Shown one piece after another: positions 1 through 39,899 of a stretch of 39,899 nt of DNA. Location: sequence record MZ234023.1. The stretch is one strand, 5' to 3'. Every line of letters begins with the position of its first letter. The first letter of the stretch is position 1. Made by a program: the position numbers and the translations under genes. This DNA comes from Escherichia phage vB_EcoP-101120B2. The notes under the pieces were generated by a model. That model was not told the origin of the DNA. It saw only the letters and a list, made by a program, of their open reading frames with translations, and did not search any database.

Positions 1-3000
1 ATGCAGGAGCAAGAGGACCGCTCTACGTGGTTCGGTTTCGGTGCGGCTACAGAAGCTGAAGTGAAGAACTCTATGGTCGGCGTGGCTATACGAGCTGGTC
101 AGACTGAGGACTCACTGGATGTCATTGGCGATGTGTTCAACCCAACCAGATGGAACAACCATAAGTGGTCTCGTGAGGAGCTAGACCAGATTCGTAACGC
201 TGGGGTTTTGCCTCAGTATTACGGAGTCATTACTGGTGGCTCTCCTCAGAACCTGACCGAGCTTATTAACTTGGCGCTTGAGAACCAGAAGTTGGACCAA
301 GAGAAGGCCAAGGCTGGGACTGGTGCTCAACTGGCGGCTGGTGTGATTGGTGCTGGCGTGGACCCTCTGACCTACGTTCCTATTGCTGGGCAGGTAGGTA
401 AAGGTGGTAAGCTAGTCAACAAGATGTTCACTGTGGCTGCTCAGTCTGGTGCTCTGGCTGGGGCATCCGAGATTGCTCGAACATCAGTTGCTGGTGGGGA
501 CGCTCATGTTGCTGAAGCTATCCTTGGTGGCGCTCTCTTCGGTGGTGGCATGACTGCTATCGCTGATGGACTAGGCAGAGCCTTAGGTCGCAACACTAAT
601 GAGTTTGCTGGTCCAGCTACACGTTTGGAAGCTCGTGAGACAGCTCGTAACGTTGATGGTCAGGACCTGTCCCGTCTCCCTATTCAGGAAGGTGAGCAGA
701 CCTTTAGTCATCAAGGCGTTAAGTTCGCTGACGTTCCGAATGAGCCGGGAAGTGTACGATTAGAAGACGGTTCAATCCTGATTGGTGAGAACCCTCTGAA
801 CCCTAAGACACGTCAAGTCTTTGACGAAGTGATTGAGCCGGAACGTGCCGCTGCTGGTGTGAACCTTGGTGGACTTACCGAGATTGGCCTGAAGCTGCTT
901 CGGTCTGAGAACCCTGAGATTCGTGGAGTAGCTGCTGACTTAGTGCGTTCACCTACTGGTATGCAGTCTGGGGCCTCAGGTAAAATCGGGACAACTGCGT
1001 CAGACGTGTTCGAGAGACTTCGTTCTGTGGACCATCGGTTCTACAACGACATCGACGATGCGGTTACTGAGGCACTAAAGGACCCGTACTTCCAGACTGC
1101 ATTCTGGCGAGACTCTGGCGCATTCCGTCAGGACATCTACCAGCGTGTGTCTATGGCTATCGAAGATGGTAGCGGAAACCTGAAGGCTGAACTGACTCCG
1201 GGAGAACTGAAAGTCTATGACCTACTGAAGAACCAGTTCGACGCCAAGCGTGAGATGATGGAGAACCCAGCGATGTTTGGTCGTCCAGACGCTCAGTCTA
1301 TCTTTCCGGGTAGCCGCTTCAAGGGAACCTACGTCCCTCATGTGTATAGCAAACAGATGAAGGAGCTGTACATCAAGGAGCTTGGGAGTCCAGAGGCGTT
1401 GCAGGAGGCCATCAAGAAGTCATGGTTGACCAGCTATGCGTCTCGACCTGAAGTCAAGAAACGCGTGGACGAGGCACTTTTAGAGGCTGACCCTACGTTG
1501 ACTCCAGAAGGACTTGCGGCTGCGGTCGATAAGTACGCCAACGATAAGGCTTATGGTATCTCTCACACCGAGCAGTTCGAGCGTTCATCCGTAATGGAGG
1601 AGAACATCAACGGGCTGGTGGGTCTGGAGAACAACAGCTTCCTTGAGGCTCGTAACCTGTTCGATAGCGATATGTCAATCGTTCTTCCTAACGGTCAGAC
1701 CTTCAGTGTCAACAACCTGCGTGAGTGGGACATGGACAAGATTGTCCCGGCCTACAACCGTCGAGTTAATGGTGATATTGCTATCATGGCTGGTACAGGC
1801 AAGACCACGAAGGAAATGAAGGACTTAGTTGAGACCATGATGAACAAGGCTGGCGATGACGGAAAGTTGAAAGGTGAAGTATCTACCTTACGTGACACCC
1901 TGAAGATTCTCACTGGTCGTGCTCGACGTGATGGTGCTGATGATGCGGCCTTCGCTACCGTGATGCGCACGATGACAGACCTATCGTTCTTCGCTAAGAA
2001 TGCCTACATGGGTGTTCAGAACTTAACGGAGATTGGTGGTATGCTGGCTCGTGGTAACGTTCGTGCACTGCTACACGGAGTACCGATGTTCCGTGACCTA
2101 GCCTTCCGTAACAAGAAGGTCGGGGCCTCGGAGATTAAGGACCTGCATAATGTTATCTTCGGTAAAGAATTAGACGACTCAATCCGTCCGTCTAAACAGG
2201 ATGTTATCGACCGTCTGCGATCTTACAGTGACCTTAGTCGTGGTACAGCTACAGCTCTGGGGACTGCTAAGTATTACACTGGTGAACTTGCAGTACGCTC
2301 TCCGTTCACTAAAGTCCTCAACGGTACGACCAACTACCTGTTAGATGCTGGACGTCAAGGCTTCCTGTCTGACATCGTGGAGCATAGCCTGACTGGTAGT
2401 AAGCGTAAGTTCGATGACCGCTGGCTGAAGACCGCTGGTATATCTGGCGAGCAGTGGAGTGGAATTAAGTCCCTAATCCGTGAGTCAGTGACTCGTGGGC
2501 CAGACGGGAAGTACACCATCAAGGATAAGAAGGCGTTCAGTCAGGACCCAAGGGCTATGGACCTGTGGCGTATGGGTGACACCATCGCTGACGAGACGTT
2601 ACTCCGGCCTCATAAGCTGTCAAACATGGACGCCAAGGCTTATGGTCCTCTCGCTAAGACTGTCCTTCAGTTTAAGAACTTCGTCATCAAGTCTATCAAT
2701 GGGAGAACCATGCGAACCTTCTATAACGCCACGAAGAACAACAGAGCGATTGACGCTGCACTGTCGACCGTGATGTCTATGGGTCTGGCTGGTATCTACT
2801 ACATGGCTCAGGCGCATGTCAAGGCTTATGCTATGCAGGATGGTCGAGACCGTGACTACCTTAAGCAAGCTCTGGACCCAACGATGATTGGCTATGCGGC
2901 CCTGTCCCGTAGTTCACATCTTGGTGGCCCACTTGGGGTAGCTAACATTCTGGGAGGCATCGCTGGATATGAGGACACTAAGATGCTCCGTTCGTCTATC

Positions 3001-3303
3001 CTACCTCGTTCTCCTACAGAGAAGCCTGAGCGTGCCATCGCGTATGGTGCAGCTACAAGTGACCCTGTGATGAATGTTGTTGGTAACTTCTTGGAGCAGG
3101 TTCCAGCTTTCGGATATGCTGCTAACGTTGGCGCTTCGGCTTACAACTTGGCTGGCTACCTCAAGGCTGATACTCGTGTCAACGAGCGTGACTACATGAC
3201 CGGGATGTATAATACGTTCCGTGAACTGGTTCCGAACGACCCCATTACCCAGAAGCTGCTGCTTGGAACGTTTGAGGAGCAAGGCATCCACATCAAGGAC
3301 TAA
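1..3303 (+). CDS. Internal virion protein D (gp16-like), C-terminal ~1100 aa; 5' partial at window edge
   Basis: Long uninterrupted ORF. Translation aligns from recalled T7 gp16 residue ~230 onward (e.g. TRWNNHKWSREELDQIRN, VITGGSPQNLTELINLA, GVIGAGVDPLTYVP motifs). Position directly upstream of the tail fibre gene as in T7. Confidence 0.85.
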   Translation: MQEQEDRSTWFGFGAATEAEVKNSMVGVAIRAGQTEDSLDVIGDVFNPTRWNNHKWSREELDQIRNAGVLPQYYGVITGGSPQNLTELINLALENQKLDQEKAKAGTGAQLAAGVIGAGVDPLTYVPIAGQVGKGGKLVNKMFTVAAQSGALAGASEIARTSVAGGDAHVAEAILGGALFGGGMTAIADGLGRALGRNTNEFAGPATRLEARETARNVDGQDLSRLPIQEGEQTFSHQGVKFADVPNEPGSVRLEDGSILIGENPLNPKTRQVFDEVIEPERAAAGVNLGGLTEIGLKLLRSENPEIRGVAADLVRSPTGMQSGASGKIGTTASDVFERLRSVDHRFYNDIDDAVTEALKDPYFQTAFWRDSGAFRQDIYQRVSMAIEDGSGNLKAELTPGELKVYDLLKNQFDAKREMMENPAMFGRPDAQSIFPGSRFKGTYVPHVYSKQMKELYIKELGSPEALQEAIKKSWLTSYASRPEVKKRVDEALLEADPTLTPEGLAAAVDKYANDKAYGISHTEQFERSSVMEENINGLVGLENNSFLEARNLFDSDMSIVLPNGQTFSVNNLREWDMDKIVPAYNRRVNGDIAIMAGTGKTTKEMKDLVETMMNKAGDDGKLKGEVSTLRDTLKILTGRARRDGADDAAFATVMRTMTDLSFFAKNAYMGVQNLTEIGGMLARGNVRALLHGVPMFRDLAFRNKKVGASEIKDLHNVIFGKELDDSIRPSKQDVIDRLRSYSDLSRGTATALGTAKYYTGELAVRSPFTKVLNGTTNYLLDAGRQGFLSDIVEHSLTGSKRKFDDRWLKTAGISGEQWSGIKSLIRESVTRGPDGKYTIKDKKAFSQDPRAMDLWRMGDTIADETLLRPHKLSNMDAKAYGPLAKTVLQFKNFVIKSINGRTMRTFYNATKNNRAIDAALSTVMSMGLAGIYYMAQAHVKAYAMQDGRDRDYLKQALDPTMIGYAALSRSSHLGGPLGVANILGGIAGYEDTKMLRSSILPRSPTEKPERAIAYGAATSDPVMNVVGNFLEQVPAFGYAANVGASAYNLAGYLKADTRVNERDYMTGMYNTFRELVPNDPITQKLLLGTFEEQGIHIKD

Positions 3304-3320
3304 ACTATCACTATAGGAAA
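3299..3320 (+). promoter_or_regulatory. Phage RNAP promoter (phi17 equivalent) upstream of tail fibre gene
   Basis: Sequence TAAACTATCACTATAGGAAA matches the window-wide repeated promoter consensus and resembles T7-group promoters (CACTATAGG core). Confidence 0.7.
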
Positions 3321-3367
3321 CTGGAGGCGCTACCATAGGTCTCCATTTAAATCACAAAGGAGGCATA

Positions 3368-5899
3368 ATGTCCACGATTACACAATTCCCTTCAGGAAAC
3401 ACTCAGTACAGGATTGAGTTCGACTACCTAGCCAGAACGTTTGTTGTTGTTACGCTGGTGAATAGCTCTAACCCTACCCTGAACCGTGTACTGGAAGTTG
3501 GTCGAGATTACCGATTCCTTAATCCAACGATGATTGAGATGTTGGTTGACCAATCAGGTTTCGACATAGTTCGTATTCACCGTCAGACTGGAACTGACTT
3601 AGTGGTAGATTTCAGGAATGGCTCAGTGTTGACAGCTAGTGACCTGACCAATTCAGAGCTTCAGGCTATCCATATTGCAGAAGAAGGTCGAGACCAAACG
3701 GTTGACTTAGCGAAGGAATATGCCGATGCTGCTGGTAGCTCTGCTGGCAACGCTAAGGATAGCGAGGACGAAGCACGCCGAATCGCTGCGAGTATCAGGG
3801 AAGCTGGTCTAATTGGCTATATTACCCGTCGCTCCTTCGAGAAAGGCTACAACGTTACAACATGGAGCGAGGTCCTGCTATGGGAAGAGGATGGTGATTA
3901 TTACCGCTGGGATGGTACGCTTCCAAAGAACGTTCCTGCTGGTTCAACTCCTGAAACTTCCGGTGGGATTGGATTAGGTGCGTGGGTTAGTGTTGGTGAT
4001 GCTGCTTTAAGAAGTCAGATTTCAAACCCGGAAGGGGCAATACTCTACCCGGAATTGCAGATGGCAAGATGGCGTGATGAGGGTGATGTTCGAGGCTGGG
4101 GTGCTAAAGGGGATGGTGTAACAGATAGTACGGAGAATATAGCTGCTTCACTAAGTTCTCAAAAAGCTGTCGTAGCATCAGAAGGTGTATTCTCTAGTTC
4201 TGGTATTAATAGTAATTACTGTAACTTAGACGGTAGGGGTAGTGGCGTGCTAAGTCACCGTTCCAGTACAGGTAACTACTTAGTATTTAACAATCCACGT
4301 ACAGGTCGCTTAAGTAATATTACGGTAGAAAGTAATAAGGCGACTGATACAACTCAGGGACAGCAGGTATCTCTTGCGGGTGGAAGCGATGTTACTGTAA
4401 GTGACGTTAACTTCTCAAACGTTAAAGGTACTGGTTTCAGTTTAATCGCATACCCTAATGATGCGCCACCTGATGGACTTATGATTAAAGGCATTCGAGG
4501 TAGCTATTCCGGCTATGCTACTAATAAGGCAGCCGGATGCGTACTTGCTGACTCCTCAGTTAACTCCCTCATAGATAACGTTATTGCTAAGAACTACCCT
4601 CAGTTCGGAGCAGTAGAGTTGAAAGGTACAGCCAGTTACAACATAGTCAGTAATGTTATAGGGGCAGATTGCCAGCATGTAACTTACAACGGCACTGAAG
4701 GGTCAATAGCTCCTTCTAATAACATTATAAAGGGGGTGATGGCTAATAACCCTAAGTATGCAGCGGTTGTTGCAGGCAAAGGAAATACTAACTTAATCTC
4801 AGACGTGCTCGTAGATTACTCAACTTCTGATGCTAGCCAGGCTCATGGCGTTACCGTAGAAGGGTCTGATAACGTCATAAATAATGTGCTTATGTCAGGA
4901 TGTGATGGTACTAACTCTTTAGGACAAGGGCAGACTGCTACAATTGCACGCTTTATAGGTACAGCTAATAACAACTATGCGTCTGTATTTCCTAGCTACA
5001 GTGCTACAGGTGTTATTACTTTCGAATCCGGCTCTACCCGTAACTTCGTAGAGGTAAAACACCCTGGCAGGAGAAACGACCTTCTCAGTTCTGCTAGTAC
5101 TATTGACGGTGCAGCTACTATTGACGGCACTAGTAATAGTAACGTAGTGCACGCACCTGCCTTAGGGCAGTACATAGGTAGTATGTCAGGTAGGTTCGAA
5201 TGGTGGATTAAGTCCATGTCACTCCCTTCAGGCGTTCTTACTTCTGCTGATAAGTACAGAATGCTTGGGGATGGTGCTGTGTCATTAGCTGTAGGTGGTG
5301 GTGCATCTTCTCAAGTTCGACTATTTACTTCTGATGGTATTTATCGGACAGTGTCCCTCACCAACGGCAACGTGCGTCTTCCTACCAGTAGCACAGGTTA
5401 TTTGCAGTTAGGTTCTAATGCAATGACCCCAGATAGTACTAATACATACGCATTAGGTTCCGCAAGTCGAGCATGGTCTGGCGGTTTTACTCAATCAGCA
5501 TTCACTGTTGTCTCAGATGCTAGGGATAAAACAGAGCCTCTTAATATCTCAGATGCTTTACTGGATGCTTGGTCTGAAGTTGACTTTGTGCAGTTTCAGT
5601 ACTTGGACCGAATTGAGGAGAAGGGTGCAGACTCAGCTAGATGGCACTTCGGCATCATCGCTCAGCGAGCTAAGGAGGCCTTCGAACGTCACGGTATAGA
5701 TGCACATCGCTATGGCTTCCTGTGCTTCGACAGTTGGGATGATGTATACGAGGAAGATGCCAATGGCTATCGTAAACTGATTACACCAGCAGGTTCCCGC
5801 TACGGTATTCGTTACGAGGAAGTACTGATATTAGAGGCTGCGTTGATGCGGCGTACTATTAAGCGTATGCAGGAAGCATTAGCTGTTATGTCTAAGTGA
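3368..5899 (+). CDS. Tail fibre / tailspike: gp17-like N-terminal adaptor + putative beta-helix depolymerase domain + C-terminal intramolecular chaperone (peptidase S74-like)
   Basis: 843-aa ORF with AAAGGAGG RBS. N-terminal ~150 aa resemble T7 gp17 (YLARxFVVVTL, LVDFxxGSxL, AEEGRD). Central region has the GWGAKGDGVTD motif typical of pectate-lyase-like tailspikes. C-terminus has the SDARDK motif (5513-5530) and an ~125-aa tail like autoproteolytic chaperone domains of endosialidase-type spikes. Confidence 0.85.
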   Translation: MSTITQFPSGNTQYRIEFDYLARTFVVVTLVNSSNPTLNRVLEVGRDYRFLNPTMIEMLVDQSGFDIVRIHRQTGTDLVVDFRNGSVLTASDLTNSELQAIHIAEEGRDQTVDLAKEYADAAGSSAGNAKDSEDEARRIAASIREAGLIGYITRRSFEKGYNVTTWSEVLLWEEDGDYYRWDGTLPKNVPAGSTPETSGGIGLGAWVSVGDAALRSQISNPEGAILYPELQMARWRDEGDVRGWGAKGDGVTDSTENIAASLSSQKAVVASEGVFSSSGINSNYCNLDGRGSGVLSHRSSTGNYLVFNNPRTGRLSNITVESNKATDTTQGQQVSLAGGSDVTVSDVNFSNVKGTGFSLIAYPNDAPPDGLMIKGIRGSYSGYATNKAAGCVLADSSVNSLIDNVIAKNYPQFGAVELKGTASYNIVSNVIGADCQHVTYNGTEGSIAPSNNIIKGVMANNPKYAAVVAGKGNTNLISDVLVDYSTSDASQAHGVTVEGSDNVINNVLMSGCDGTNSLGQGQTATIARFIGTANNNYASVFPSYSATGVITFESGSTRNFVEVKHPGRRNDLLSSASTIDGAATIDGTSNSNVVHAPALGQYIGSMSGRFEWWIKSMSLPSGVLTSADKYRMLGDGAVSLAVGGGASSQVRLFTSDGIYRTVSLTNGNVRLPTSSTGYLQLGSNAMTPDSTNTYALGSASRAWSGGFTQSAFTVVSDARDKTEPLNISDALLDAWSEVDFVQFQYLDRIEEKGADSARWHFGIIAQRAKEAFERHGIDAHRYGFLCFDSWDDVYEEDANGYRKLITPAGSRYGIRYEEVLILEAALMRRTIKRMQEALAVMSK

Positions 5900-5925
5900 G
5901 TAATACTGGTACGGTATTTCGCACA

Positions 5926-6123
5926 ATGAAATCGTTGAACACACTGACGAGGAGGGTAATGTCACTACTACGGAAGAACCTGTATACACCGAGGTGGTTA
6001 TTCACGAAGAGGGTGAGGAGTGGGGGTGTTCGGCCTGACGGAATTTTCTTTGCTGAAGCCGCTTATCAGAGAAGAAAACTGGAAAGAATCGAAGCCAGAC
6101 TTTCTGCTCTTGAACAGAAGTAA
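5926..6123 (+). CDS. Hypothetical small basic protein (start uncertain: GTG 5896, ATG 5926 or ATG 5959)
   Basis: ORF in a ~330-bp gap between tail fibre and holin that T7 lacks. GAGGAGGG precedes ATG 5959 but with very short spacing. Highly basic, Arg/Lys-rich product. Confidence 0.3.
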   Translation: MKSLNTLTRRVMSLLRKNLYTPRWLFTKRVRSGGVRPDGIFFAEAAYQRRKLERIEARLSALEQK

Positions 6124-6233
6124 TAAACAAAACCATTTTGCCATTAGGTTGGTGGGGTAGAGACTAACTACACGCTAACCAACGTATGTAACAACTTTGG
6201 GTCACGGACGACCCGCTTTAAACTGGAGGTTTT

Positions 6234-6428
6234 ATGATTGAGTTAGACTTCAAGAATGAGGTCCTTAAAGCCTCTCCTATCGTCGGGACCGCTGCGGCTG
6301 ATGGTGCCAGTCGGTTCTTCTTCGGACTTACACTGAACGAATGGTTCTACGTTGCAGCTATCGCGTACACCGTTGTCCAGATTGGTGTGCTAGTCTACAA
6401 AACGATTAAAGGAGGTGGTAAAACATGA
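6234..6428 (+). CDS. Holin (gp17.5-like)
   Basis: 64-aa product MIELDFKNEVLKASPIVGTAAAD...WFYVAAIAYTVVQIG closely resembles recalled T7 gp17.5, with one hydrophobic segment. GGAGG RBS. Confidence 0.8.
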   Translation: MIELDFKNEVLKASPIVGTAAADGASRFFFGLTLNEWFYVAAIAYTVVQIGVLVYKTIKGGGKT

Positions 6429-6688
6429 CGCAGATGGACTTAGAGAAGTTCCTCTTGATGCTGGATACTGAACGTGCTAGACTCATGCTGCAAGACCTGC
6501 GGGATGACTCTAAGCGTTCACCTCAGCTTTACAACGCCATTGAGAAGCTACTGGCTCGTCACAACTTCGTGCTAAGTAAGGTGTCTGTGGACGAGAAGAC
6601 GCTGGCTGATATGGAGGCCCTGAACGCAGAGTACGATAAGGTGCTTTCAGCGACTGAGGATAATGACACCGGGTATGGCGTTCAATAA
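6425..6688 (+). CDS. Terminase small subunit (gp18-like)
   Basis: 87-aa product with FLLMLDTERARLMLQDL...RSPQLYNAIEKLLARH resembling T7 gp18. ATGA overlap with the holin stop. Confidence 0.85.
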   Translation: MTQMDLEKFLLMLDTERARLMLQDLRDDSKRSPQLYNAIEKLLARHNFVLSKVSVDEKTLADMEALNAEYDKVLSATEDNDTGYGVQ

Positions 6689-6694
6689 GTGTTA

Positions 6695-6736
6695 GACTCA
6701 AGGTCATTACTATATGTAGTGGCCTTTATGGTTAAC
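6695..6736 (+). promoter_or_regulatory. Conserved structured RNA element, probable RNase III processing site
   Basis: Motif GACTCAAGGTCAT...GTGGCCTTTATGGTTAAC, one of three near-identical copies (also 16393 and 23617). Resembles T7 R1.1-type RNase III substrates from memory. Confidence 0.4.
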
Positions 6737-6789
6737 ACTAACTAGTGGAGGAGACTCTACGTGAAATCTGATAAACCGGGAGGGCAACT

Positions 6790-7233
6790 ATGCTCGAATT
6801 TTTAAAGAGAGCGGCTCCGTGGTTACTTGCAGCAGTGATGTTTGCTGGTGGCTACCACACCGCTAACAATAAGTGGGAGGCTAAGGTAAATGCAGAATAC
6901 ACCTCGAATCTTAAGGCATCGGAGGATACAAGGCTTGCTGTCCAAGCTGAAGTCAACAAAGTGTCCAAACGGTTTCAGGACGAAATGTCCTCGCTGGAAG
7001 GCAGCACTGACAGGATTATTGCTGACCTTCAGTCTGACAATAAGCGGCTGCGCATCCGAGTCAAACCTACGAGTGGAACCACGCAAAGTGACGGTCGATG
7101 CGTCATTGATGGTTACGCCGAACTTGACGAACGAGATGCTAAACGTCTTATCTCCATCGGACTGAAAGGGGACGCTTGGATTAAAGCACTACAGGATACT
7201 ATCCGCAAACTTCAACAAGACAAGGAGAAATGA
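6790..7233 (+). CDS. Rz-like i-spanin (gp18.5-like)
   Basis: 147-aa product beginning MLEFLKRAAPWLLAAVMFAGG (N-terminal TM) and ending with DAKRLISIGLKGDAWIKALQDTIRKLQ, like recalled T7 gp18.5. Confidence 0.85.
   Translation: MLEFLKRAAPWLLAAVMFAGGYHTANNKWEAKVNAEYTSNLKASEDTRLAVQAEVNKVSKRFQDEMSSLEGSTDRIIADLQSDNKRLRIRVKPTSGTTQSDGRCVIDGYAELDERDAKRLISIGLKGDAWIKALQDTIRKLQQDKEK
6890..7165 (+). CDS. Rz1-like o-spanin (gp18.7-like) embedded in the +1 frame of the Rz gene
   Basis: ORF nested in Rz. Product contains a lipobox-like LTISGC followed by ASES and SLMVTPNLTNEMLNV, matching recalled T7 gp18.7. Exact start uncertain. Confidence 0.7.
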   Translation: MQNTPRILRHRRIQGLLSKLKSTKCPNGFRTKCPRWKAALTGLLLTFSLTISGCASESNLRVEPRKVTVDASLMVTPNLTNEMLNVLSPSD

Positions 7234-7670
7234 TGCTCAGTGATTCGTATTTCTATGATGAGTCCAGTAAGTCTGGCCTGAAGTCCCTGCGTTCTGGTAA
7301 GGATGTGGGGTGTGTGGGAAACCACGGGTATTATCAGGTAGGAACTCGACGTCATGGACTCCTGCTGGCCCATAGAGTCGTCTGGGAGCTAACCAACGGT
7401 CCTATACCAGAAGGGATGGAGATTGACCATATCGACCGCTGCCGGACTAACAACAGGCTGGACAACCTCCGGCTAGTTACTTCAAGCGAGAACTCCTGCA
7501 ACACCTCAGGACATTCCGACTCAAAGACTGGAGTTAAGAACATATCGTTCCATCAGAATGGCTACGCTATCGAGGTCATGCGTAAGGGGGTCCGTATGCG
7601 AACAACACGTCCTACTTTAGAGGAGGCTATCTCTGTCCGGGACCTAATGCTGGAGGGACTCTATGTCTAA
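7230..7670 (+). CDS. HNH homing endonuclease with C-terminal AP2-like DNA-binding domain
   Basis: 146-aa ORF with ATGA overlap to Rz stop and 8-nt overlap with large terminase start. HNH-like motif [26 protein letters not shown]-terminal [33 protein letters not shown] resembles AP2 domains. No counterpart at this position in T7. Confidence 0.75.
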
Positions 7671-39314: not shown

Positions 39315-39899
39315 ATGGCGACTCGTGGTATTCGCAATAACAATCCGGGTAACATCCGGGTAAGTAAGGACCAATGGGAAGGAATGACTGGAGATGATGG
39401 CGCATTCGTCACCTTCGATAGTCCAGAGTCTGGCGTCCGAGCTTTAGGTAAAAACCTGCTGTCCTACGGTCGCCAAGGTTATGATTCCATCGAGAAGATT
39501 ATCAACAGATGGGCACCTCCTAACGAGAACGACACTAAGGCTTATATTGACTCAGTGGTGGCTGCAACTGGTATTCCAGCTACACAGAGTCTCGACCTAT
39601 CGGACCCTGACACCCTGTCTTCTCTGGCACAAGCTATCAGCTTCCATGAGACAGGCTCACGGTACGACCCTGAAGTCTATCAGAAGGGAGTCGCACGGGC
39701 ACTCAACGGCATTAGCCCAAAGACTCCACCAGTAAGCGCTAACGTATTTGACGCACTCACGGAAGGACTCAAGGCTAAACCTAAAGTAGCTCTGGGTGAG
39801 AACCTTCCGACCGCTGCTGGTCTGAACATTGAGGGTCAAGCACCTGAATCTCCCAACGAATCGTTCGGTGAGATGTTCTATAAGGCTACTGGAGAGACC
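39315..39899 (+). CDS. Internal virion protein D (gp16-like), N-terminal 195 aa; 3' partial at window edge
   Basis: ATG 39315 with TAAGGAG RBS; open to the window end. Product MATRGIRNNNPGNIRVSKDQWEGMTG... does not resemble the recalled T7 gp16 N-terminal transglycosylase domain. Confidence 0.75.
   Translation, partial: MATRGIRNNNPGNIRVSKDQWEGMTGDDGAFVTFDSPESGVRALGKNLLSYGRQGYDSIEKIINRWAPPNENDTKAYIDSVVAATGIPATQSLDLSDPDTLSSLAQAISFHETGSRYDPEVYQKGVARALNGISPKTPPVSANVFDALTEGLKAKPKVALGENLPTAAGLNIEGQAPESPNESFGEMFYKATGET

Follow-up and report, generated by a model that had tools for sequence, protein, structure and literature searches.

Gene 17 of a T7-like Escherichia phage: a probable K5 lyase tailspike on a K1F-type attachment end, with the marks of a cassette exchange

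What does gene 17 of Escherichia phage vB_EcoP-101120B2 encode, which host would its product serve, and how did the gene come by its present form? The window analysed here is the whole 39,899-nucleotide stretch of record MZ234023.1. The genome is that of a T7-like Kayfunavirus, and encodes the nozzle protein gp12. In the closest GenBank records the spike is labelled "hypothetical protein", while a short stretch downstream of it, described below as a relic, is labelled "tail fiber protein". The gene order around the spike is gp16, spike, relic, holin, gp18/small terminase, Rz, HNH, and large terminase, with no second spike gene after gene 17. The features discussed are listed in Table 1.

K5 lyase tailspikes have already been cloned, biochemically characterised, and crystallised. 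Judged by homology, gene 17 encodes one of them: the well-studied E. coli phage tailspike that cuts the K5 (heparosan) capsule, fused to a K1F-type attachment end. CDS 002 of Escherichia phage vB_EcoP-PM131 is 100% identical to gene 17, and the authors of the source paper name it "K5 lyase" (PMC8614997). The structure 9vvr_A is approximately 97% identical to the protein over residues 1–843. Because of these two matches, the open reading frame and its motifs cannot be put down to chance. The product is thus already known, having been both described and structurally solved, and its architecture is ordinary.

Table 1. Positions of gene 17, its parts, and the downstream relic (numbering of the whole window)
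Feature	Position	Strand	Basis
Gene 17, tailspike precursor (K5 lyase tailspike)	3368..5899	+	ATG-to-stop ORF, 843 aa, 90.3 kDa
T7 gp17-type tail-attachment domain and the helical segment behind it, aa 1-150	3368..3817	+	Pfam, PDB, K1F gp17
Tail_spike_N domain (CBA120 TSP / G7C gp66 type), aa 151-225	3818..4042	+	Pfam PF18668
Mature K5 (heparosan) lyase body, aa 242-715	4091..5512	+	PDB 2x3h, PHROG 14895
GWGAKGDGVTD, aa 243-253, and left recombination junction	4094..4126	+	Motif position, collinearity ends
Swapped-in cassette, 1783 nt: K5 lyase body, own chaperone, stop codon, and 10 nt more	4127..5909	+	
Putative catalytic residues E417, K419, Y440	4616..4687	+	Equivalent to E206/K208/Y229 of K1-5 gp46
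C-terminal intramolecular chaperone domain (Peptidase_S74), aa 716-843, 128 aa, 14.9 kDa	5513..5896	+	Pfam, PDB
SDARDK, aa 716-721, Ser716/Lys721 autoproteolysis dyad	5513..5530	+	Alignment with endoNF
Frameshifted relic of displaced K1F-type endosialidase: gp17 chaperone domain, codons ~996-1064	5910..6123	+	

The N-terminal end is that of a T7-type spike. The Pfam profile for the T7 gp17 N-terminal domain (PF03906) matches aa 10–115 (E = 2e-15; score 57.2 bits, threshold 25.2), and the T7 gp17 structures 7boz, 8dsp and 8e4g align with aa 6–116; the T7-like context, with gene 16 upstream, agrees with this assignment. Identity to K1F gp17 is 93% over aa 1–150. A preliminary description of the gene had recognised the T7-type adaptor, which stands, but had ended the resemblance at about 150 residues, whereas the conserved virion-proximal unit of Kayfunavirus spikes extends to approximately 211–253 aa. 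It had also overlooked a fourth module, Tail_spike_N, which PF18668 places at aa 156–211 (E = 3e-19, 69.3 bits, cut-off 25), and with which PDB entries 4oj5, 5w6h, 6nw9, 5w6f and 9occ, including structures of CBA120 TSP1-4, align over aa 149–265. Most Kayfunavirus spikes are more than 94% identical to the gene up to approximately nt 632–654 of the gene (aa ~211–218), and diverge beyond that point.

The GWGAKGDGVTD motif, previously read as the mark of a β-helix depolymerase, sits in the K1F-derived part, and the K1F endosialidase has the identical motif, likewise at aa 243–253. Since that enzyme is annotated and known as a sialidase and not as a lyase, the motif cannot be taken as a sign of a β-helix. 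The catalytic body of the K1F endosialidase has a β-propeller fold. The pattern G-x-G-A-x-G-D-G-x-T-D is common to two unrelated catalytic bodies, those of the endosialidase and the lyase.

The nature of the catalytic body is indicated instead by homology along its whole length. The K5 lyase KflA (PDB 2x3h) matches aa 242–716 with E = 1e-286 and approximately 96% identity; PHROG 14895, 'tail spike protein', matches aa 209–843 with 1292 bits; and gp46 of phage K1-5 is 94% identical to aa 244–843, without gaps and with 35 substitutions. The earlier proposal of a polysaccharide depolymerase core is borne out by the likeness to crystallised KflA, and the expected capsule- or O-antigen-degrading spike with an encapsulated host would become, through identity to K5 lyase, one directed at the E. 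coli K5 (heparosan) capsule. According to PMC8822698, KflA is a trimer in which a triple-stranded β-helix comes after the β-helical lyase, and the body is accordingly predicted to consist of a right-handed β-helix that leads into a triple-stranded β-helix stalk. This assignment comes from the identity to solved 2x3h and the published description, and not from Pfam. The Pectate_lyase_3 match that had been expected was not obtained above threshold: PF12708 (Pect-lyase_RHGA_epim / Pectate_lyase_3) aligned with aa 241–372 at E = 0.037 and 14.2 bits, where the cut-off is 27. By homology to KflA the spike would therefore be a β-helix polysaccharide lyase, yet one that PF12708 does not recognise as a member. 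An AlphaFold2 model of the 843-residue spike, made from the single sequence only, was unusable (mean pLDDT 33, pTM 0.25).

Candidate catalytic residues were located using the numbering of K1-5 gp46. The catalytic residues are reportedly E206, K208 and Y229 in KflA/gp46 numbering (Thompson et al. 2010). With an offset of 211, these positions fall on E, K and Y in the spike, and the agreement of all three residue types is consistent with the catalytic assignment, although it is no proof of it. The same three residues are kept in K1-5 gp46 and in the K5 lyase of phage UE-S5b, and 2x3h shows no difference over this segment. Mapping by the chain index of 2x3h (offset 174) was rejected, since it led to Y, G and D, evidently because additional residues precede the lyase at the N-terminus of that chain. 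A text search of the literature for the names of the catalytic residues returned nothing relevant.

It might be argued that the KflA fold has been kept while the 4–6% or so of substitutions retarget the spike to another capsule or O-antigen, so that the host is not K5. The 35 differences from K1-5 gp46, some of which lie in the β-helix, might in theory modulate specificity; isolation of the phages was on UPEC ST131 strains for which the available text of PMC8614997 states no K type, and the phages bred in that study gained point mutations in gene 17. Set against this, aa 319–418 and 494–593 show 100% identity to K1-5 gp46, all three putative catalytic residues are kept, and tailspikes normally switch specificity by replacement of a whole domain, as has happened at this locus. 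We consider retargeting very unlikely, and the K5 capsule the probable substrate.

The C-terminal domain is a clear member of Peptidase_S74. PF13884 matches aa 716–776 (E = 5e-14; score 52.7 bits, threshold 22), as the preliminary description had anticipated in proposing a self-cleaving chaperone of this type. The domain aligns with PDB entries 3gud (the C-terminal domain of the GA-1 neck appendage, 1e-23), 3gw6 (that of the K1F endosialidase, endoNF), 7y5s, 6eu4, and 4uw8 (T5 pb1), and the alignments of 3gud, 3gw6 and 4uw8 reach approximately aa 838. A gap-free BLASTP segment places S716 on S911 of endoNF and K721 on K916, preserving the S-x4-K spacing, and both residues are also conserved in K1-5 gp46. 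The earlier estimate of about 125 residues and 14 kDa, with SDARDK, was close to the values in Table 1.

In the K1F record, mature gp17* comprises aa 2–910 and gp17-CTD begins at aa 911, so that cleavage is at 910|911. Given the match of Ser716/Lys721 to the endosialidase dyad Ser911/Lys916, the spike is predicted to be cleaved between Val715 and Ser716, freeing the 128-aa, 14.9-kDa chaperone. In T5 pb1, mutation of the equivalent Ser to Ala stops autoproteolysis, and the catalytic Ser departs with the chaperone (PMC4690869). An alternative is that the domain escapes cleavage and remains part of the virion, forming a tip with a structural or receptor-binding role, as might be suggested by the deposited sequence of 9vvr, which comprises the full 843 residues. 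This alternative is extremely unlikely: neither residue of the dyad is lost and both line up with those of endoNF, the S74 score is far above its cut-off, the last residue of the 2x3h chain aligns with S716, and the homologous domains of endoNF, T5 pb1 and GA-1 are all released. Cleavage and release remain the preferred prediction.

The origin of the gene can be read from its junctions. Nucleotides 1–4126 and 5910–7000 are collinear with phage K1F at about 95–96% identity, and the cassette between them is the sole stretch of nucleotides 1–7000 that is not. Collinearity with K1F stops at nt 4126, and collinearity with K1-5 gp46 (95%) covers nt 4121–5903; over the whole cassette, DNA identity to gp46 is 95.3%. 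The cassette has a GC content of 0.448 compared with 0.502 for the backbone, a value undercut by only 1 of 382 windows of equal size. Gene 17 is thus a clean mosaic whose left crossover lies within GWGAKGDGVTD, and this is the new detail reported here.

The right-hand side carries a remnant of what was there before. The relic is 92.7–93.3% identical to the 3′ end of K1F gp17 and the following intergenic region, and when it is translated, K1F 'SHNEIVEHTDEEGNVTTTEEPVYTEVVIHEEGEEWG' is matched by one reading frame and K1F 'VRPDGIFFAEAAYQRRKLERIEARLSALEQK' by a different one. The 3′ end of the UE-S5b endosialidase gene is 98% identical to it. PM131 carries the annotation 'tail fiber protein' for 5959..6123. 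We considered whether the 75-aa open reading frame at 5896..6123 could encode a small tail protein in its own right, or another receptor-binding protein; this was rejected, as the frame is a piece of the K1F gp17 chaperone domain broken by frameshift, and a Pfam search of the relic gave no match. It is only because of the relic that a direction can be suggested for the exchange, with a lyase cassette replacing an endosialidase.

A chimera of this kind might also be an artefact of assembly or of laboratory breeding, for example a recombinant from cocktail passaging, and not a natural gene. The closest records do come from a study which deliberately recombined Kayfunavirus and Vectrevirus phages (PMC8614997). 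The full-length chimera is however present at 96–99% identity in phages isolated independently by different laboratories in other countries (AN17P1, AN24P4, SHAK7854, EcoIv10b_Midid, PDP21P1, vB_EcoP-R1, IME177 and ZG49), as well as in the wild-type ancestors 101120B1-2 and 22664UKE3-2 of the same study and in PDB 9vvr, and the frameshifts in the relic imply that time has passed since the swap. The independent isolates rule out laboratory recombination, and the probability left to an artefact of any kind is negligible. The chimera is taken to be natural.

Among the closest relatives, KflA of coliphage K5A/K5 and gp46 of K1-5 (Vectrevirus, SP6-like) have a lyase body and chaperone 94–96% identical to aa 244–843, without gaps, and presumably the same substrate, K5 heparosan. 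K1-5 gp46 has 632 aa and an N-terminus of approximately 32 aa, compared with the 253-aa K1F-type N-terminus here; according to a review the adaptor gp37 anchors it to the virion beside a second spike, whereas the present protein would attach directly to the T7-like tail as its only spike. The K5 lyase of UE-S5b (Gamaleyavirus, N4-like, G7C group; genome 74 kb) is approximately 91% identical to aa ~206–843, including the K1F-like aa 206–253, but differs at the N-terminus, where aa 156–205 are 40–56% identical and the upstream part is unrelated. Its gene adjoins the endosialidase gene. PDB 9vvr, 'Tail spike protein' (843 aa, 18 chains), has the same length and architecture, being a Kayfunavirus-type chimera that differs from our spike by a few dozen substitutions; a literature search found no paper behind it.

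K1F gp17 is 93% identical over aa 1–253, GWGAKGDGVTD included, and the flanking genes 16 and 17.5–18.5 of K1F are approximately 95% identical in DNA to those here. EndoNF follows the same logic of anchor, catalytic body, triple β-helix stalk, and S74 chaperone cleaved at Ser, but its catalytic body is annotated as a K1-capsule endosialidase where ours is a K5 lyase, and the two chaperone domains are only approximately 30% identical. T5 pb1, the GA-1 neck appendage and the phiAB6 tailspike share a homologous C-terminal domain and pre-cleavage stalk motif, while their upstream receptor-binding or catalytic parts are unrelated to that of the spike.

The following account, in which we place high confidence, brings these points together. 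Gene 17 would encode a homotrimeric tailspike whose target is the K5 capsule (heparosan) of E. coli, which it would recognise and degrade by β-elimination. The first ~211–253 residues, inherited from a K1F-type spike, would fix the trimer to the tail; aa ~242–715 would form the KflA-type β-helix, with putative catalytic Glu417, Lys419 and Tyr440, and then the intertwined triple β-helix stalk. The S74 chaperone (aa 716–843) would nucleate folding of the trimer from the C-terminus and then remove itself by Ser716/Lys721 autoproteolysis, leaving a mature chain of approximately 75 kDa in the virion. We infer that in a K1F-like ancestor the endosialidase body gave way to the lyase-plus-chaperone cassette, whose nearest counterparts are in the SP6-like phages K5 and K1-5. 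The exchange would have moved the host range from K1 to K5 capsule, the old chaperone being left downstream as a decaying fragment.

A wider reading is offered tentatively, as one that we regard as possible but would not bet on. It takes the locus as a readable K1-to-K5 switch, in which body and matched chaperone move together, as one complete cassette, from one podovirus family to another among Vectrevirus (SP6-like), Kayfunavirus (T7-like) and Gamaleyavirus (N4-like) phages. On this view the motif G-x-G-A-x-G-D-G-x-T-D, along with a second boundary where Tail_spike_N ends (aa ~211), would serve as a conserved recombination linker for spike swapping and not as a signature of fold, and an orphaned chaperone would decay because it is specific for its own stalk.

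For annotation, the labels of spike and relic in the closest GenBank records can be corrected. K5 lyase has been reported to cut unsulfated domains of mammalian heparan sulfate (as cited in PMC7885116), and for this reason virions might, speculatively, interact with mucosal glycans. The phage is predicted, from sequence, to require K5-encapsulated E. coli, for example many UPEC and Nissle 1917-type strains, which is relevant to the choice of phages for therapy cocktails. It also makes the locus a neat textbook illustration of how exchanging a cassette changes host range that the two junctions can still be seen, as can a molecular fossil.

The spike gene (3368..5899, + strand) is an ATG-to-stop open reading frame of 843 aa in the window, exactly as given in the preliminary description, which had read it as a T7-type adaptor, a pectate-lyase-like core and a self-cleaving chaperone. 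That interpretation is supported, apart from minor corrections. PDB chain 9vvr_A, a "Tail spike protein" of 843 aa from an entry with 18 chains, aligns end to end with the spike at ~97% identity, and 2x3h_A ("K5 LYASE") aligns with aa 242-716 at ~96% identity (E=1e-286), its last residue falling at the position aligned to Ser716. Other structures match individual regions, namely T7 gp17 (aa 6-116), the N-terminal domains of the CBA120 tailspike (aa ~150-265), and the chaperone domains of the GA-1 neck appendage, endoNF (the endosialidase of phage K1F) and T5 pb1 (aa ~685-838). At the level of sequence, the PDB matches settle the identity of the protein as a K5-lyase tailspike. The protein was already known, as were its structure and name, and a literature search for the paper behind 9vvr found none. 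PHROG 14895 ("tail spike protein") matches aa 209-843 with 1292 bits. A single-sequence AlphaFold prediction gave an unusable model (pLDDT 33).

Positions and Pfam support of sequence features of the spike gene and the region downstream
Feature	Position in spike	Position in window	Strand	Match
Phage_T7_tail	aa 10-115			Pfam 2e-15, 57.2 bits (cut-off 25.2)
Tail_spike_N (PF18668)	aa 156-211			Pfam 3e-19
GWGAKGDGVTD motif	aa 243-253	nt 4094-4126	+	
SDARDK motif	aa 716-721	nt 5513-5530	+	
Peptidase_S74	aa 716-776			Pfam 5e-14, 52.7 bits (cut-off 22)
Relic		nt 5910-6123; ORFs 5896..6123, 5959..6123	+	K1F gp17 codons ~996-1064

Both motifs in the table had been noted previously, as had a C-terminal domain of ~125 aa; the piece from Ser716 to the C-terminus measures 128 aa and 14.9 kDa. 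Pfam returned the expected Peptidase_S74 domain, while the expected pectate-lyase family stayed below threshold (PF12708, E=0.037, 14.2 bits against 27). This was the only family membership that the spike failed to show, and by its matches it is classed with the KflA K5-lyase tailspikes and the carriers of S74 chaperones.

The putative catalytic residues of KflA, reportedly E206, K208 and Y229 (Thompson et al., 2010), correspond to E417, K419 and Y440 of the spike, and are conserved in the K5 lyases of phages K1-5 (gp46) and UE-S5b. A text search of the literature gave no confirmation that E206, K208 and Y229 are catalytic. KflA is a trimeric K5 lyase with a β-helix at its centre and a triple-stranded β-helix after it (PMC8822698). 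By homology, the close match to 2x3h supports the β-helical lyase core proposed for the spike. K5 lyases act on the heparosan capsule and on unsulfated parts of heparan sulfate (PMC7885116). We infer lyase activity and K5 dependence for this spike.

Ser716 and Lys721 align without gaps to Ser911 and Lys916 of endoNF, for which the K1F record places the boundary between mature protein and C-terminal domain at 910/911. In T5 pb1, mutation of the equivalent Ser to Ala stops autoproteolysis, and the Ser departs with the chaperone (PMC4690869). The cut is therefore predicted between Val715 and Ser716, and would split the precursor into a mature chain of 75.4 kDa and a released chaperone of 14.9 kDa.

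In a BLAST comparison, the window is collinear with phage K1F over nt 1-4126 (95-96% identity) and again over nt 5910-7000, leaving only nt 4127-5909 (1783 nt) as non-K1F sequence. This cassette is 95.3% identical to gp46 of the SP6-like Vectrevirus K1-5 (over window nt 4121-5903). Its GC content is 0.448, compared with 0.502 in the remaining genome, and is lower in just 1 of 382 equal-sized windows. Given that the K1F match runs to nt 4126 and the K1-5 match starts at nt 4121, the left crossover is placed in the last codons of GWGAKGDGVTD. This motif had been taken as a sign of a β-helix depolymerase. The identical motif occurs at aa 243-253 of the K1F endosialidase, which is annotated as a sialidase and has a presumed β-propeller catalytic fold; the K5/K1-5 counterpart is FGAAGDATTD. 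The motif is thus part of the inherited K1F-type region here, marking the junction, and is no evidence for a β-helix in this protein.

Directly after the spike stop lies the relic, which shares ~93% identity with the final ~70 codons of gene 17 in K1F. The end of that gene is annotated gp17-CTD in the K1F record, and the match runs on into gene 17.5. On translation, one frame yields K1F "SHNEIVEHTDEEGNVTTTEEPVYTEVVIHEEGEEWG" and a different frame "VRPDGIFFAEAAYQRRKLERIEARLSALEQK", which shows that the relic is frameshifted. It is a decaying remnant of a K1F-type endosialidase chaperone domain, and indicates that the K5 cassette was received by a K1F-like, K1-specific ancestor. In the closest GenBank record, Escherichia phage vB_EcoP-PM131, the part at 5959..6123 is labelled "tail fiber protein". 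The cassette chaperone is only ~30% identical to that of K1F. Chaperone and triple β-helix stalk may form matched pairs, and a cassette that carries its own, dissimilar chaperone fits such pairing.

The spike gene is 100% identical in DNA to CDS 002 of PM131 and its sister phages (Autographiviridae, Studiervirinae, Kayfunavirus), labelled "hypothetical protein" in GenBank. At least 80% of the gene is present in 15 phage records, in 13 of them at full length with 96-100% identity. A passage in PMC8614997 describes point mutations accumulated in "CDS 002 (K5 lyase)" of PM131-group phages. In phage ZG49 (L004, 3001-6241), the spike is spread over two adjoining genes, gp38 covering aa 1-686 and gp39 covering aa 458-843. 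The segment aa 458-686 is therefore present twice, through either a true partial duplication or an error in the assembly.

The gene is preceded by gp16 and followed by holin, gp18, Rz, HNH endonuclease and large terminase genes. None of the genes that follow is a second spike-sized gene, and the phage is therefore a single-spike phage. The HNH ORF (7230-7670; Pfam HNH_3, 1.8e-21), between the Rz and large terminase genes, is listed in the PM131 record as a homing endonuclease. The record is circularly permuted within gene 16, so ORF 1..3303 is just the 3' 85% of that gene; joining 39315-39899 to 1-3303 gives one gp16 of 1295 aa, equal in length to its K1F counterpart. This gp16 is internal virion protein D and carries a transglycosylase at its N-terminus.

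Among ~200 related records, N-terminal similarity to the spike ends repeatedly at two places. In most Kayfunavirus spikes it stops where Tail_spike_N ends, at gene nt ~632-654 (aa ~211-218); in the K1F group and a few others it reaches the motif, at gene nt ~750-759. Two domains and ~211-253 aa thus make up the conserved anchor, which extends beyond the first ~150 aa originally likened to T7 gp17. Judged from these alignments, the anchor is a module common to many phages and sharply bounded near aa 211. Salmonella and Klebsiella phage records match the first ~633 nt of the gene at 94-97% identity and Enterobacter phage records at 81-82%, in each case followed by divergence; one record labelled Enterococcus phage is 95% identical over the first ~587 nt.

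The lyase-plus-chaperone cassette is found on three different virion platforms. In SP6-like phages it has a short N-terminus and the spikes are attached to the virion through the adaptor protein gp37, whereas here it sits on a K1F/T7-type anchor. In the N4-like phage UE-S5b (Gamaleyavirus, 74 kb; L003, 1-4918) it has another N-terminus, and the K5 lyase and endosialidase genes are adjacent. Modular exchange of such cassettes is established for K1 and K5 phages. The UE-S5b K5 lyase contains a K1F-like segment (aa 206-253), and the relic matches the 3' end of the UE-S5b endosialidase gene at 98% identity, which suggests that both cassettes have been exchanged between Kayfunavirus and Gamaleyavirus.
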